Assembly (NCBI GenBank): GCA_963752285.1
Contig: CAVVXN010000001.1
Coordinates: 800,001-864,000 of the forward strand
Origin: an uncultured Planctomycetota bacterium
Lineage (GTDB): Bacteria; Planctomycetota; PLA2; JAEUHO01
DNA length: 64,000 nucleotides
Direction: 5' to 3'
Part shown: positions 54,584 through 59,562 of the stretch, one piece after another
Position numbering within the stretch: position 1 is the first letter of the stretch
Layout of the letters: each line of letters opens with the position of its first letter
Program-made: the position numbers and the translations under genes
The notes under the pieces: model-generated
Databases searched by the model: none
What the model was told of the DNA's origin: nothing
The model's input: the letters and a program-made list of their open reading frames with translations, nothing else

Positions 54584-55135
54584 ATGAAGACGACCCTGGT
54601 CCTGACCGTGATCCTCGCCGCCGTGGCCGGCATCGGCTGGCTGCGTCCCGCCGAGGGCCCCGCCCGCGGCGCCGCGCGCGGACGTTACATCGTGAACGCC
54701 TTCGCGTGCGCCGACTGCCACACGCCCTTCCAGATGGGGCCGCACGGTCCCGAACCCGACCTCGCGCGAGCGCTCTCGGGTCACCCCGAATCGCTCGCCA
54801 TGCCCCCTGCGCCGCGGCTGCCCGCCGGTCCGTGGGCGGTGACGGTCGCCGCGACGAACACGGCGTGGTCCGGACCGTGGGGTACGAGCTTCACCGCGAA
54901 CCTGACCCCCGACGACGAGACCGGCCTCGGCCGGTGGACGGCGGACATGTTCGTCGCCGCGATCCACAGCGGCCGCCACATGGGGCACGGGCGCCCGATC
55001 CTCCCGCCCATGCCCTTTCCGGCCCTCTCGAACCTGAGCGACGACGACCTCCGCGCGGTCTTCGCCTACCTGCGCACCCTACCGGCCGTCCGGAACCACG
55101 TTCCCGACCCCGTGCCGCCCGCCGCAGCCGAGTGA
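54584..55135 (+). CDS. c-type cytochrome (monoheme)
   Basis: Signal; ARGRYIV, CADCHTP, ANLTPDDETGLGRWT, PPMP, LSDDDLRAVFAYL. Confidence 0.85.
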   Translation: MKTTLVLTVILAAVAGIGWLRPAEGPARGAARGRYIVNAFACADCHTPFQMGPHGPEPDLARALSGHPESLAMPPAPRLPAGPWAVTVAATNTAWSGPWGTSFTANLTPDDETGLGRWTADMFVAAIHSGRHMGHGRPILPPMPFPALSNLSDDDLRAVFAYLRTLPAVRNHVPDPVPPAAAE

Positions 55136-55449
55136 CCGCGGCGGACCGGGCGGGGCGCGTGGACCGCGCGTCGCAAAACGGGCGACGCGCGGTCCCTCGT
55201 CCTCGTCCGAATGGGACGAACTTCGATGCGCTGGGCGTCACGCGGCCCGCGGCACGCCCGGATCCCGAGGACCGCGCGGCTCGTCGTCGGCGAGCCGTCG
55301 AAGCCCATCCTCGTGGCCCGGCGCGATCGGCCCGGCCCGCCCCGCCCTCCCCGCGGTCGGGTCCGTGGTCCGTGCCCGGCGGGCCGGGTCCGCGGGACGG
55401 CCCCGAGAGCCCTGTTTCTCGGGCGTTCCGAGCGACGCCCTCCCCCGGT

Positions 55450-55502
55450 CGGGCGTGTCGGTGGTTCTGTCTATGTTAGGTCCTCCAGACCACCGCAGCC
55501 CG
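55450..55502 (+). promoter_or_regulatory. Imperfect hairpin directly upstream of the RBS of the HNH-RuvB gene
   Basis: CGGGCgTGtCGGTGGTtCTG pairs with CAGACCACCGCAGCCCG; loop contains TATGTT. Confidence 0.45.
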
Positions 55503-55519
55503 GAAAGGGGGAACCCCAG

Positions 55520-58168
55520 ATGCCCGCCCTCGAAGACGTCCGCCAGGCCCTCTCGTCGATCGACCTCGTCCCGGGGCTCTCCGTCCAGAACGTCGAGATG
55601 CGCCTCGACGTCGGCCTCCGTCTCGGAGACGTGGGACAGCGCGTCCTCGCCTTCTACCTCGTCGAGATGGACGCCCGCCGCCTCTACCAGGCGCTCGGGT
55701 ACCCCACGACCGCCTCCTACGCCGAGGACCGCCTCGGTTTCGACCGGCGCCGGACCGCCGAGCTGATCCGGGTCGGGCGCGCGCTGCTCGCGCTCGAGGA
55801 GCTCGACCGGGCCTTCGCGCGGGACCGGCTCCCGTGGTCGAAGATCCTCCTGCTCTCGCGGGTCGCGACCCCGGAGCACGAGAAGGCGTGGCTCGGGCGC
55901 GCGCTCGAGAGGACGACGCGCGAGCTCGAGGCGGAGGTCCGAAGCGTCAGGGTGGGCGCCCCTCCGCCCCAGCCCGGCGAGCGAAGGGGTCTTCCCGAGG
56001 TTCGCTTCGAGGTCGAGATGAAGGTCTCGGCGCTCGTCCAGGCGAAGCTCGAGCAGGCTCAGGCCCGCGTCGAGGCGGAGCGCGAGACGCCGATCGGAGG
56101 GCCCGAGCTCCTGGACGTCCTCCTCGACACGTTCCTCTCGCTCGAGGAGGACGGGACCGCGCCGGGGAAGAAGCGCGTGGACGCGTCGCTCTACAAGATC
56201 GTGCTCCACGAGGAGGAGCCACCGGAAGCCGGGGACCAGGCCGGGGACGAGGCTTGCGACGAGGCCGAGGACGCGCACGAGACGGAAGAGAGCGACGGAG
56301 GCGCGTCGCCCCCGCTCGGGGACGCCGCGAGCGACGAGGCGAATCACGCGGCGCACCGCGCCGCGAGCCGCGTTGCGGGCCACGCCGCGAGCCCTGCCGC
56401 GAGCCACGCCGCGAGCCACGCCGCGGGCCACGCCACGAACGTCGCGGGGAGTGACGCGGGGCCAACCGCACCGACCACGCGGTCCGCCGACGGCCCGCGG
56501 CTCTGGCTGGAGGGGGGCCTCTCGCTCGACGCGTCCCTCAGCGCGGCGATCCGCTGCGACGCGGCCGTGACCCGGATCGACGAGGCGCGGCACGGTCGCC
56601 ACGACGATCCAGGTCACGATCACGACCACAAGGACGTGAAGACCCCGCCGTGGCTTCGGAGGCGCGCGCTCGCCCGCGACGACCACCGCTGCCGGGGCTG
56701 CGGCTCCCGCTACCGGCTGATGGTCCACCACGTCCGGTGGCGCTCCCACGGAGGGCGGACGCACCTTCGAAACCTCGTGACGCTCTGCGTGCGCTGTCAC
56801 GCGCTGGTCCACGCCGGCCTCCTCGTCGTCACCGGGAGGGACGCCCGCCGACTCTCGTTCCTCGGGCGGGACGGGCGGGCGCTGCGACGTCCGCTCCCGG
56901 CCGAGGACCGCCTCGCGATCTTGGAGATCCCGCCCGCACGGGACGGTGGGGGGGCGGGAGCGCCCGCGCGACCCGGGCCCGCGGGCGCGGCGCACGCGGG
57001 GATCGGGCGCGCGGAGGCCGGGTGCGCGGAGGCCGGGTGCGCGGAGAGCGGGCGCGCGGAGACCGGCTGCGTCGGGATCGGGAACGTGCCCCGGGAGATC
57101 GACGGGGCGTGGTGGCGGCGCCACAAGGATCTCGTCCGGTTCCGGAGCGAGACGACGCTCTCGCTCCGTCCGGGCGTCGCGCGGCCGGTGGACGAAAGGG
57201 CTGCGAGCCGAGGCGCCGCGAACCGGGAGGGTGCGCGGAGCGAGCCGATCCCGGTCGAGCAGGCCTTCCCCGGCCTCGTGGGCCAGGACGCGCTCCTGGC
57301 GCGGCTCGCCGTGACCTCCAAGGGGTCCCGGGCCCGGGGGGAGACGTTTCCCCATGTGCTCCTCGTCGGCCCCGCGGGCACGGGGAAGACCACGATCGCG
57401 CGGGGGATCTCGCGCCTCGAGGGAACCCGGCTCGTCGAGGCATCGGGGAGCTTCCTCTCCGACGTCGGCGCGATGGTCCGGCTCCTGGCCGGACTCGAAG
57501 AGGGCGACGTGTTCTTCCTGGACGAGGTCCACGCGATCCCCGCGGCGGCGCTCGAGACGCTCTACCAGGCGATGGTCGAGCAGGCCCTTCCGCTCGTGGT
57601 GGAGATGGGCGTCGAGTCGCGGCCCGTCCGGCTCGTGCTCCCGCGCTTCACGCTCGTCGCCGCGACGACCGAGGAGCCGCGCGTCCCGCTTCCGCTCCGG
57701 AGCCGGTTCGGGCTCGTGGAGACGCTCGGCTACTACGGGGCGGCGGACCTCGCGCGACTCGCGGTCGCGCGGGCGGGGGCGAAGGGGTACGCGCTCGGGC
57801 CGGAGGCGGCGAAGGGGCTCGCGAAGGTGGCGAGAGGAACGCCCCGTGAGGCGATCCGGCTCGTGGAGCGAACGCTCGACGCGGCGGCGGCCGAGGGCAC
57901 GAGGCGGATCGACGCCCGGGTCGCGACGAGAACCCTCTCGCTCCTCGGCTACGACGCCGACGGGCTCGACCCGACCGAGCAGCGCTACCTCGCGCTGCTC
58001 CGTGCGAGCGCGGGGCCCGTGCCGCTCGGCCGGCTCGCGCGGATGCTCGGGACGAGCGCGGGCGCGGTGCTCCAGAGGGTCGAGCCCTACCTCTGCCTTC
58101 GCGGCCTCGTCCGCGTGACGCCGACGGGGCGCGTCGCGACGTACCGACCTCGGATCGCGGAGGCCTGA
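55520..58168 (+). CDS. DUF222-like/HNH endonuclease/RuvB-like AAA+ ATPase fusion protein
   Basis: N-term YAEDRLGF...ELIRVGRAL...LPWSKILLL; HNH RDDHRCRGC...VHHVRWRSHGGRT...NLVTLCVRCH; RuvB VGQ, GPAGTGKTT, FLDEVH, AATT, LRSRFG, RGTPR, EPYL, TPTGR. Confidence 0.88.
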   Translation: MPALEDVRQALSSIDLVPGLSVQNVEMRLDVGLRLGDVGQRVLAFYLVEMDARRLYQALGYPTTASYAEDRLGFDRRRTAELIRVGRALLALEELDRAFARDRLPWSKILLLSRVATPEHEKAWLGRALERTTRELEAEVRSVRVGAPPPQPGERRGLPEVRFEVEMKVSALVQAKLEQAQARVEAERETPIGGPELLDVLLDTFLSLEEDGTAPGKKRVDASLYKIVLHEEEPPEAGDQAGDEACDEAEDAHETEESDGGASPPLGDAASDEANHAAHRAASRVAGHAASPAASHAASHAAGHATNVAGSDAGPTAPTTRSADGPRLWLEGGLSLDASLSAAIRCDAAVTRIDEARHGRHDDPGHDHDHKDVKTPPWLRRRALARDDHRCRGCGSRYRLMVHHVRWRSHGGRTHLRNLVTLCVRCHALVHAGLLVVTGRDARRLSFLGRDGRALRRPLPAEDRLAILEIPPARDGGGAGAPARPGPAGAAHAGIGRAEAGCAEAGCAESGRAETGCVGIGNVPREIDGAWWRRHKDLVRFRSETTLSLRPGVARPVDERAASRGAANREGARSEPIPVEQAFPGLVGQDALLARLAVTSKGSRARGETFPHVLLVGPAGTGKTTIARGISRLEGTRLVEASGSFLSDVGAMVRLLAGLEEGDVFFLDEVHAIPAAALETLYQAMVEQALPLVVEMGVESRPVRLVLPRFTLVAATTEEPRVPLPLRSRFGLVETLGYYGAADLARLAVARAGAKGYALGPEAAKGLAKVARGTPREAIRLVERTLDAAAAEGTRRIDARVATRTLSLLGYDADGLDPTEQRYLALLRASAGPVPLGRLARMLGTSAGAVLQRVEPYLCLRGLVRVTPTGRVATYRPRIAEA

Positions 58169-58436
58169 CCGGGGAGACGCACGCGACGAGCGGCCGCCCC
58201 TCGAACGGAGGAAGGGGAGCCGGACGCGCGCGAGCGCGACGGGGGAGAGGTGCGTCCCGAGGCCGCGGCGCGCGGCTGCGGCGCGAGGCCGCGCTGCGGG
58301 CGGGGCGCGAGGGCGCGGCGCGCGGGCGCGGCGCGGGCGCGGTCGGGGTGCGGGTGCGGTCGGGGTGCCGAATCGGGGGGAGGCGGGCGAACGAGGCGCC
58401 CCATTAGCCCGTCCGATCTCGCCGAGGGCGATCGGA

Positions 58437-58481
58437 CGAGGTCGGCGAGGTCGGCGAGGTCGGCGAGGTCGGCGAGGTCGG
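58437..58481. repeat. Tandem repeat (CGAGGTCGG)x5
   Basis: Five exact 9-mers. Confidence 0.9.
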
Positions 58482-58503
58482 CAGGCGTCCGGACGGGGCG
58501 CTT

Positions 58504-58850
58504 TGTAAAGATCGGCGCGCGCCGGACGTCCGGCAAAACCGACCGGGGGTCGGGATTGCGCTCGACGCTTGGCCGGAGCCGCATCCCGTGGGCGCCCGCG
58601 CGTAGAGGGCGGCGGCGCGAGAGCTTCCAGGACGACGGGCGCGCGCCGGACGCCTGGCCATGCCGAGCGTCGGGTCCCGACGGACCGTCGGGTCCCGACG
58701 AACCGCCGGGTGTCGCGCGGGTTGGGCGCCCGGGGTGGTCGCGGGCGGCGTTGCCGGGGTCGGATCGGCGGCGCCGAGGGGCTCGTGTGCAAGGGCTTCT
58801 GTAAAGACCGGGGCGCGCCGGACGTCCGGCAATGCCGACCCGGGTCGGCA
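58504..58850. repeat. Two related ~50-bp double-palindrome units (58504-58553 and 58800-58850)
   Basis: TGTAAAGA.CGG.GCGCGCCGGACGTCCGGCAA..CCGACC.GGG(G)TCGG in both copies. Confidence 0.8.
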
Positions 58851-58926
58851 ATCGACATCCGGGACCTCGGGGCTCGTGTGGGGCGGGCCCGGGCCGCGCT
58901 TGGTCCCCCTCCGGACGCTGGACAAT

Positions 58927-58940
58927 ACTGACCAGTCAGT
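58927..58940. promoter_or_regulatory. Probable TetR operator
   Basis: Palindrome ACTGAC-CA-GTCAGT next to a -35-like TGGACA, upstream of the tetR-efflux operon. Confidence 0.7.
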
Positions 58941-58995
58941 CGGTTTTGGGTGCTCGGCGTCGTCCGGACCGGGCCGCCCGGAGGACGCACATCCC

Positions 58996-59562
58996 TTGCA
59001 GACACGATCCGAGGACAAGCGCCAACGCATTCGTCGCGCCGCCGCCGAGCTCTTCGCCACGCGGCCGTATCACGAGGTCCTTCTCTCCGACGTGGCGGCC
59101 GCTGCCGGCGTGGGGAAGGGCACCATCTACGTCTACTTCGAGAACAAGGACAGCCTCTATCTCTCGGTCTACCTGGAGGAGTTCGTGGCCCTGGTGGACG
59201 CCCTCGATGCGTCCGCCGACGCCGCTCCGGACGCCCCCGAGGCCCTCCGCCAGGTGGTCCAGCAGCTCGTCGCCCACATCTTCGGGAGCCCCCACGTCTC
59301 CGAGCTGCTGCGAAACGTCGGGGCCCCCGGCGCGCTGACCCCGTTCCGCGAGCAGCACGGGCGCCTGACGGCGCTGATCGCCAAGGTGATCCGGCGGGGC
59401 GTCGAGGCGGGCCGGTTCCAGGACCCGCGCCCCGACCTCACCGCGGTCTACCTCCCCGGGATCGTCCGGTCGGCGCTCCTCTACGGTCCGCAGGGACTCA
59501 CGGCCGTCGAGGTGAGCGAGCACCTGGTCGGGCTCCTCCTCTCCGCGCTCGCGGCGAGGTAG
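58996..59562 (+). CDS. TetR/AcrR family transcriptional regulator
   Basis: IRRAAAELFA...DVAAAAGVGKGTIYVYFENKDSL; TTG start after GGAGGA. Confidence 0.9.
   Translation: MQTRSEDKRQRIRRAAAELFATRPYHEVLLSDVAAAAGVGKGTIYVYFENKDSLYLSVYLEEFVALVDALDASADAAPDAPEALRQVVQQLVAHIFGSPHVSELLRNVGAPGALTPFREQHGRLTALIAKVIRRGVEAGRFQDPRPDLTAVYLPGIVRSALLYGPQGLTAVEVSEHLVGLLLSALAAR

Follow-up and report, generated by a model that had tools for sequence, protein, structure and literature searches.

A polypeptide joining a DUF222-like domain, an HNH nuclease and a RuvB-derived motor in Planctomycetota: a putative damage-induced branch of the 13E12-like multicopy superfamily

Introduction

A single gene in the stretch of DNA studied herein encodes an HNH nuclease and a RuvB-derived motor in one polypeptide, preceded by a domain that is remotely related to DUF222 and likely resembles ParB. 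The stretch, hereafter the window, comprises 64,000 nucleotides (nt; positions 800001-864000 of contig C1) of the 4.64-Mb, five-contig genome (G000) of an uncultured Planctomycetota bacterium. We propose, at a probability of about 45%, that this fusion combines nuclease and motor in a self-contained, damage-induced enzyme of the 13E12-like multicopy superfamily, with a probable role in recombination that maintains or spreads its own gene. By sequence comparison, the fusion branch of that superfamily captured its RuvB motor once. An earlier note on this DNA had described the three-module reading frame; membership in a multicopy family, a damage-type promoter and a palindrome on the 3' side of the gene go beyond it.

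That 13E12 repeats behave selfishly is a suspicion of long standing. In high-GC bacteria, DUF222-HNH ("13E12") genes rank with the most frequent multicopy genes that still lack an explanation, and to our knowledge no mechanism has been assigned to them since the first genome of Mycobacterium tuberculosis. No account of a mechanism was found in the literature searched for DUF222, and RuvB, AAA and DUF222 are all absent from the main text of the His-Me finger classification. Nor was a description of an HNH-RuvB fusion found in the literature searched, whose supplements may list architectures; the earlier note, too, knew of no described protein of this kind. The 13E12 genes of M. tuberculosis are described as damage-induced, as carrying RecA_NDp and, in many cases, as bound by LexA (PMC3381160).

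Results

The fusion gene is real and encodes three modules

The frame on the plus strand is open from 55136 to 58168 of the window, with a G+C content of 0.91 at third codon positions (GC3) versus 0.57 at second positions (GC2). The longest ATG-initiated open reading frame (ORF) in this frame begins at 55211. A start at 55520 is supported because the homologous Met is the start of the closest paralogue (the copy on contig C5), a purine-rich tract (~55502-55513) lies just 5' of it, and a promoter-like motif lies further upstream. Features are collected in Table 1, in which residue numbers follow the 882-residue product.

Table 1. Features of the fusion gene and its surroundings, and regions of the stand-alone repeat
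Feature	Residues	Coordinates	Strand	Remarks
RecA-NDp-like promoter motif, TGTCGGTG-GTTCTGTC-TATGTT		55456..55477	+	8-nt spacer; 42 nt before start codon
Direct repeat GTTC-N7-GTTA		55464..55478	+	Overlaps promoter spacer and -10 region
Coding sequence: ParB-like/DUF222-like domain, HNH, RuvB-like AAA+	882 in total	55520..58168	+	
N-domain core, all-helical, ParB-type helix-turn-helix-like fold	20-145	55577..55954	+	Predicted structure
Disordered linker, acidic and Ala/Ser/His-rich	217-372	56168..56635	+	Predicted confidence (pLDDT) <50; missing in 24 aligned relatives
HNH (beta-beta-alpha-Me) nuclease domain	373-458	56636..56893	+	Pfam, invariant residues and fold matches
"WWRRH" block, small structured element	515-560	57062..57199	+	Directly before motor
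RuvB-derived AAA+ module: P-loop domain, lid, winged helix	582-876	57263..58147	+	
REP-like double-hairpin element, copy 1		58495..58565	.	Palindrome GCCGGACGTCCGGC at 58521-58534
REP-like double-hairpin element, copy 2		58797..58857	.	Same palindrome at 58817-58830
1.28-kb stand-alone repeat regions in source genome		C1:577600-578930; C4:69500-70810; C5:1365000-1366260; C2:500700-502000		

As the earlier note had proposed, this single 882-codon ORF contains three modules, and Pfam HNH, RuvB_N, AAA_lid_4 and RuvB_C all score over their cut-offs. Conservation was read from a family alignment of 25 sequences (the window copy and 24 relatives; profile of 758 positions), structural models were made with AlphaFold2, and folds were searched with VIA-align and Foldseek. 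Pfam HNH (PF01844) matches residues 391-432 (E 2.3e-9; 37.7 bits against a cut-off of 21.4), and the domain carries the catalytic His and Asn and the two CxxC zinc pairs of the beta-beta-alpha-Me motif, with C391, C394, H403, H404, N418, C423, C426, H427 and H431 invariant in 25 of 25 sequences. Its nearest folds by VIA-align are TagI (6ghs, Z 8.3), EcoKMcrA (6ghc, Z 7.4) and IscB (9nvu, Z 7.2).

The motor is represented by RuvB_N at residues 584-735 (E 1.9e-35), AAA_lid_4 at 739-811 and RuvB_C at 815-875, and Foldseek pairs the fused module with solved RuvB structures at E ~1e-23 and 33-40% identity. The motifs quoted earlier (GPAGTGKTT, FLDEVH, AATT, LRSRFG, RGTPRE and EPYL...TPTGR) are all present in the translation and align residue for residue with those of solved RuvB. 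Walker A G617/G620-T-G-K623, Walker B E669, sensor 1 T716, Arg finger R729 and sensor 2 R772/R776 are again invariant in all 25 sequences. One polypeptide carries both a nuclease and a motor, each intact. The WWRRH block in front of the motor has no family match; its D528, W531 and W532 are at least 90% conserved in the alignment, and the block as a whole has pLDDT values of 92-94. The linkers between modules are disordered in the AlphaFold2 models. A low-complexity insert of ~90 residues in the linker between the N-domain and HNH (56168-56635) is private to the window copy, the relatives having a short linker.

For one orthologue pair (G007/G024, 92% nucleotide identity), the ratio of nonsynonymous to synonymous substitution rates (dN/dS) is 0.08 in the N-domain, 0.14 in HNH, 0.17 in the WWRRH block and 0.08 in the RuvB module, and 0.49 and 1.03 in the two linkers. 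Every module is under purifying selection in this pair, and the RuvB part does not show the dN/dS near 1 that the earlier note had named among its grounds for refutation. An artefact of assembly or annotation, or a dead read-through of two genes, is an explanation that we regard as close to negligible, even though high-GC DNA yields long spurious open frames. Beyond the window copy, the fusion recurs in two paralogues, 15 of the 24 sibling genomes and no fewer than 150 representative clusters, so that mis-assembly, also named earlier, fails; the same architecture is seen in both paralogues, in 18 intact copies of sibling genomes and in 51 of the 150 representatives listed. Moreover, coding constraint is evident because GC3 and dN/dS both show it. 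The fusion gene is real and coding, with the three modules as described.

A ParB-like N-domain with remote homology to DUF222

The N-domain is all-helical over residues 20-150, with pLDDT >90. Its best VIA-align matches are to Spo0J (1vz0, Z 9.7, root-mean-square deviation 2.8, 106 aligned residues), followed by the ParB-parS complex (6s6h, Z 9.4) and KorB (1r71, Z 7.7, and 8qa8, Z 7.4). The top six rows of the Foldseek search are chains of three ParB/Spo0J entries at non-significant E-values of 0.02-0.06, and Noc also stands within the top ten, whose E-values of 0.02-0.09 fall short of the significance line. With the two aligners agreeing on the model, a ParB-like fold is likely but not proven. 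The ParB/Srx N-terminal CTP-binding domain has no Pfam match in the fusion protein.

The earlier note had called this domain DUF222-like. No direct match to Pfam DUF222 (PF02720) is obtained at E <= 0.1, but the term stands as remote homology. The family profile aligns with P0032, a bona fide DUF222-HNH protein (Pfam DUF222 at E 2e-21, plus HNH), with an hhalign probability of 99.2 (E 2.6e-19) over 331 columns, colinearly from the N-domain through HNH, and "DUF222-like" is valid in this sense because of that colinearity.

Copies in the source genome and its relatives

The source genome contains three fusions and at least eight stand-alone relatives with the N-domain and HNH (N-HNH). The two further full-length fusions lie at C5:126044-128521 (56.7% identical to the window copy) and C2:102793-105330 (~41%). 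An isolated fragment of 43 residues at C1:303091-303219 corresponds, with 77-83% identity, to the sensor 2 region of the fused module of RuvB type; ~2.5 kb from it is a partial match to a LexA-type C-terminal (S24-like) domain (C1:300369-300641). Canonical ruvB (C5:725766-726653; 37.7% identical to the fused module), ruvA (C5:1762921-1763493) and ruvC (C4:123273-123719) are all encoded outside the window, which answers the earlier suggestion to look for a separate ruvABC. The absence of ruvA and ruvC nearby was also confirmed, in the gene calls for 40-64 kb of the window and in Pfam checks of fusion neighbours.

One of the stand-alone relatives is a dispersed repeat of 1.28 kb consisting of the gene and its leader. 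Aligned copies at C1:578869, C4:70759 and C5:1366208 are 96.5-98.8% identical; at C2:501973-501980 there is a fourth that is nearly identical. The ends of the unit are sharp, ~53 nt 5' of the leader motif and a few bases past the stop codon, and its flanks are unrelated. This stand-alone repeat demonstrates that the superfamily can multiply in units the size of a gene, but it is no evidence that the fusion does so at present.

Relatives were compared in 40 genomes (24 of the same family, 11 of the sister family and five of other families). Matches beyond canonical RuvB occur in 15 of the 24 same-family genomes, with up to 18 in one genome, and in 0 of 11 sister-family and 0 of 5 other-family genomes (in one of these five the canonical RuvB match falls in two pieces). 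Among 23 fusion copies from 10 genomes, 18 are intact, three are split between two frames and two carry in-frame stops. A search with the N-domain alone across 401 sampled genomes of the phylum gave matches in 34, of which 21 have more than one, in open frames of ~700-900 and ~400-560 residues; these two sizes would fit fused and stand-alone N-HNH forms, respectively.

The fusion is not a one-off. A word-indexed search returned 24 clusters of full architecture (677-839 residues), one of them publicly named "AAA family ATPase [Planctomycetia bacterium]", and database copies are already present in number under the labels "AAA family ATPase" or "RuvB". In an exhaustive profile search of 1.84 billion representatives, the best 150 matches listed all have E <= 4.4e-96; 51 of these 150 match in one stretch over 700 or more of the 758 profile positions, and many of the rest are fragments. 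An ESM Atlas cluster has 123 members, with Planctomycetota the commonest phylum among the 42 of known phylum. In a contig pattern search, which was swamped by its Walker A pattern, the matches listed were canonical RuvB and other AAA+ genes. Among sequencing runs, three of DNA contain 5-9% of the sampled sequence words, and none of RNA is listed.

A motor captured once and diverged since

The fused module scores 241.6 bits against NF000868 (cut-off 282) and 218.6 against TIGR00635 (cut-off 299.05), below both RuvB equivalog cut-offs, while it covers positions 23-318 of 330 and 5-297 of 305, respectively. Sub-cut-off scores over near-full RuvB models are the signature of a diverged paralogue. 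The phylogeny that the earlier note had called for was built from 26 canonical RuvB sequences and 42 fused modules, of which 18 are intact copies from genomes and 24 are metagenome proteins. All 42 fused modules form one separate clade (SH-aLRT support 100), whose stem measures 1.03 substitutions per site. It lies beside canonical RuvB of Planctomycetota, in a position that the tree leaves unresolved, and the canonical RuvB of the source genome falls outside it, with the RuvB of its own family. Because all fused modules form one clade, the motor was captured once. End branches in the fused clade are several-fold longer than those of canonical RuvB; by these branch lengths, the motor has evolved fast after its capture. 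Within the clade, the window copy is sister to the C5 copy, the C2 copy branches apart, and expansions confined to single lineages are seen in some genomes.

A rival explanation is a RuvB paralogue of the ordinary kind, still a partner of RuvA and RuvC in branch migration, with N-terminal domains that are regulatory or inert baggage. Such a paralogue would retain this near-complete coverage of the RuvB model (positions 23-318 of 330), and the fused module indeed keeps, between Walker B and sensor 1, the segment that aligns with the presensor-1 hairpin of solved RuvB. The sequence of that hairpin has diverged, however, and the module falls below both equivalog cut-offs in a separate clade on a long stem. 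Moreover, the N-domain and HNH are not baggage because they, including the HNH active site, are conserved as strongly as the motor. We consider this explanation highly improbable.

A RecA-NDp-type promoter in the leader

The leader motif (55456-55477) fits exactly the mycobacterial RecA-NDp consensus, tTGTCRgtg - 8 nt - TAnnnT (PMC5656591), here in a host that belongs to Planctomycetota. PafBC is reported to activate its targets through the RecA-NDp motif (PMC6789036, PMC8223512). In strict form the motif has three matches in the 4.64-Mb genome versus ~0.5 expected, and all three precede DUF222-like HNH genes: the window copy, the C5 copy and one stand-alone N-HNH gene. Relaxing the motif to TGTC[AGC][GC]NN-N8-TAnnnT gives 23 matches genome-wide. 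Eight of these precede family members (all three fusions and five stand-alone genes), so the leader motif is common to fused and stand-alone forms; seven precede recA, ssb, the DNA polymerase III alpha gene (dnaE), thyX, a class II ribonucleotide reductase (RNR) gene, the topoisomerase VI-B gene and an RdgC-like gene; and three have no downstream ORF. Among 20 fusion copies from nine genomes, the relaxed motif stands upstream on the coding strand in 12, and in none of the 20 downstream or on the opposite strand. These 12 make up most of the 14 matches, counted on both strands, in 229 kb of fusion loci. The genome also encodes a protein with HTH_PafC, WYL and WCX domains (C5, locus L157:1051-2151) and a second WYL+WCX protein. 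The motif and these genes suggest a PafBC-type damage regulon outside Actinomycetota, in which the fusion gene would be induced by damage in its host.

In 10 of the 20 fusion copies a direct repeat, GTTC-N7-GTT[CA], precedes the approximate start by 39-81 nt; downstream it is found in 0 of 20. With an AT-rich spacer it has 16 matches genome-wide, eight of them before DUF222-like HNH genes. This repeat was considered as a LexA/SOS box and rejected, being absent upstream of lexA and recA and overlapping the RecA-NDp-like motif; in the window, where it reads GTTC-N7-GTTA, it may simply be part of the promoter. A further leader element, (A/T)TTCCGGGCTC(N)CCGGG, was seen upstream of the TGTC motif in several family members, namely at L111 and L112 (G016) and at stand-alone genes of the source genome; a hairpin or another operator are possible identities for it.

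The same promoter evidence bears on the main rival, a host-beneficial, non-selfish repair enzyme that is damage-induced and serves as a one-polypeptide alternative to RuvABC or as a ZRANB3-like processor of forks and cruciforms. Such an enzyme would be expected to share its motif with recA, ssb, dnaE, thyX and RNR and to keep all modules under purifying selection and its RuvB motifs intact. It would also have a precedent in ZRANB3, a translocase-HNH fusion described as an ATP-dependent endonuclease in replication stress (PMC5481773). What would be unexpected for core repair is its absence from nine of 24 same-family and all 11 sister-family genomes; other genomes have up to several diverged copies of it, accompanied by split or stop-bearing copies and by fragments. 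The host, moreover, has ruvA, ruvB and ruvC, and the end branches of the fusion are far longer than those of canonical RuvB. We therefore hold the repair enzyme to be somewhat unlikely, and place more weight on the nuclease-motor that maintains or spreads its gene.

A palindrome on the 3' side

Downstream of the fusion gene are two copies of a 14-bp palindrome of the general form GCCGRA-NN-TYCGGC, with ACGT or ATAT at its centre. GCCGGACGTCCGGC occurs 11 times and its variant GCCGAACGTTCGGC five times in the source genome (~16 sites), as part of a double-hairpin repeat of ~115 nt that resembles repetitive extragenic palindromic (REP) elements and consists of CCGACC..GGTCGG, then GCCGGACGTCCGGC, then TCTTTACA. 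A five-fold tandem array of this repeat lies at C1:643040-643600. The palindrome is found from -91 to +650 nt relative to the stop codon in all three fusions of the source genome, and beside 0 of 8 stand-alone relatives. Sibling fusion loci have 19 palindrome sites in 229 kb versus ~1 predicted from the density in the source genome, and 11 of these 19 lie at or past the stop codon, some of them inside the last codons. Indeed, the C-terminal tail [AT]PNVR[HRQ] is the translation of the palindrome in 12 of the 25 aligned proteins, and there is one mismatch to it in three copies with readable DNA.

The two fusion loci of G009 hold eight of its 44 palindrome sites, and three of the eight sites of G019 lie beside fusions. 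Five genomes with the fusion have 33, 44, 8, 8 and 28 palindrome sites, versus 5, 6, 3, 2 and 2 in five same-family genomes without it; this contrast is a lead, not a test, because these genomes are related to one another and presence of the gene is what separates the two groups. The palindrome could be a docking site for the ParB-like domain, an insertion target or its relic, or simply a terminator or REP element of which copies have built up at this position. A scan of the loci for perfect palindromes, aimed at a shared parS-like site, yielded just the REP-like family. In the spacer after the gene (58440-58483) there is a tandem repeat of the 9-nt unit GGTCGGCGA in ~4.5 copies. Rfam gave 0 matches at E <= 1 over 54900-59100.

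Locus context

The neighbours of the fusion gene in the window are a protein with a Ser/Thr kinase, AAA_16 and TPR domains, a cytochrome c-like gene and a TetR-HlyD-MFS set of efflux genes; upstream there is also a second small ORF, with a CxxCH motif. No neighbouring protein recurs across 23 fusion loci, and comparison of the flanks of 23 copies revealed neither terminal repeats nor shared neighbours. Between the window and C5 copies, nucleotide homology begins ~70 nt 5' of the start codon and ends a few bases past the stop; because it stops at the gene borders, the unit consists of the gene and a short leader. G001, of the same genus, keeps the TetR-HlyD-MFS block (76% nucleotide identity) with different genes upstream; in G007 the cytochrome c-like gene(s) of the upstream side stand at a locus of their own, for which no fusion match is listed; and the comparison with G020 yielded end fragments only. 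No insertion boundary could be defined from these three genomes. At one fusion locus of G007 (L101, on its contig C7), a repeat of ~130-150 nt lies ~200-400 nt upstream of the gene and has at least 18 further copies in sibling G024; it looks like a miniature inverted-repeat transposable element (MITE) or a REP element.

The earlier note had also raised a role in defence, and a nuclease combined with an NTPase motor is indeed a common defence layout. An anti-phage or anti-plasmid enzyme of this kind would be an ATP-driven translocating endonuclease with a McrBC-like or other AAA+-plus-nuclease logic; the fold matches of HNH include the modification-dependent restriction enzymes TagI and EcoKMcrA, and the copy number is patchy and variable. 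PADLOC, the gene neighbourhood, plasmids and phages nonetheless lend the idea no support. PADLOC reports no system match for the fusion, only weak domain-level matches to DpdF (E 9.7e-6, over HNH) and to mad8 and TRIP13 (over the P-loop), and PHROGs matches are likewise domain-level only. The 23 loci have no defence-island neighbours or recurrent partners, none of 72,556 plasmid or 50,697 phage records covers at least 80% of the query (canonical RuvB matches only, in both sets), and the promoter is one common to DNA-metabolism genes. Defence is thus a quite improbable function.

Discussion

In the working that we propose, the gene would first be transcribed from its RecA-NDp-type promoter under a PafBC-like WYL regulator, alongside recA, ssb and dnaE; the motif is present at each of these genes, and induction of the fusion gene by damage is presumed. 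The ParB-like N-domain would then dock on specific DNA, for which GCCGRA-NN-TYCGGC at the 3' end of the gene is the candidate site; a likeness in fold and an association in position point to such binding. Next, the RuvB-derived ring, whose motifs are intact, might pump duplex DNA or migrate a cruciform or Holliday junction without RuvA. Finally, HNH, with its invariant active site, would nick or cleave the DNA there. The likely net effect would be recombination at or near the gene's own locus, which would maintain or spread the gene in a selfish or semi-selfish manner.

Several observations weigh against this proposal. The dN/dS values come from a single orthologue pair, and purifying selection on all modules would be just as compatible with an enzyme that benefits the host. 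That the fusion has moved recently is not demonstrated, because its copies within the genome are old (41-57% identity) and terminal repeats, target duplications and empty sites were not found for them. As for the promoter, five of the 23 relaxed matches precede unrelated genes, and eight of the 20 fusion copies are without the motif. The likeness to ParB is weak, since a Z of 9.7 is reachable by chance for helical models and the Foldseek E-value is only 0.02. The palindrome, for its part, belongs to a REP-like repeat found across the genome and may be no more than a terminator or a passenger; moreover, its variants do not follow the protein phylogeny, and differ between the sister copies on C1 and C5.

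A bolder reading takes the fusion as a "Rosetta stone" for the superfamily. DUF222-HNH nucleases would then be ParB-guided and damage-induced, and would act on four-way or cruciform DNA extruded at specific palindromes by way of RuvB-type branch migration, which is built in here and would be borrowed from host RuvB by the stand-alone forms. The fused branch would in turn be a new kind of REP-associated selfish element that cuts and recombines at REP-like palindromes in order to copy itself or to seed them. As a whole this scheme is rather doubtful. A nuclease welded to a complete RuvB motor, with both kept under selection, leads to the testable hypothesis that these nucleases act on DNA that needs branch migration. 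There may also be a link between one particular nuclease-motor gene and a family of REP-like palindromes. If it loads itself, a ring of RuvB type that has its own targeting domain and nuclease would make a compact translocate-and-cut machine of possible practical interest.

Among known systems, the fusion comes close to the DUF222-HNH genes (REP13E12/13E12) of M. tuberculosis and other Actinomycetota. Both have a helical N-domain followed by HNH, colinear by profile, and both are multicopy with a RecA-NDp-type promoter upstream (RecA_NDp and LexA sites on the 13E12 side; PMC3381160). The fusion differs in that it has no direct Pfam DUF222 match, belongs to Planctomycetota and has the WWRRH block and a RuvB-type AAA+ module appended; its copies are old and diverged, not near-identical repeats. 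With RuvB, the fused module shares the same three-domain fold and the same Walker A, Walker B, sensor 1, Arg-finger and sensor 2 motifs. Canonical RuvB stands alone, however, whereas the fused module is found in several copies beside canonical ruvB and forms a separate, fast-evolving clade.

Members of the ParB/Spo0J/Noc/KorB family bind parS-type palindromes, and the fusion combines its best fold likeness, over residues 20-145, with an adjoining 14-bp palindrome. Unlike that family, it has no detected CTP-binding/Srx domain; the likeness is weak and at the level of the fold, and binding of the palindrome by the fusion is a candidate function only. RAYT transposases of REP-associated elements are flanked by REP palindromes, and the fusion is likewise tied physically to a genome-wide family of extragenic palindromes. 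It consists of HNH and AAA+ modules, however, not of a Y1 transposase, and its palindromes lie mostly on the 3' side only. Human ZRANB3, an SNF2 translocase with a C-terminal HNH, similarly joins a translocase and HNH in one polypeptide and is tied to the DNA-damage response (PMC5481773). Its homology to the fusion is limited to the HNH fold, where the match is weak (5mkw, Z 4.6). It is eukaryotic, single-copy and recruited by PCNA, and its SNF2 motor is reported to be a monomer, whereas the RuvB-type AAA+ motor of the fusion presumably forms a ring.

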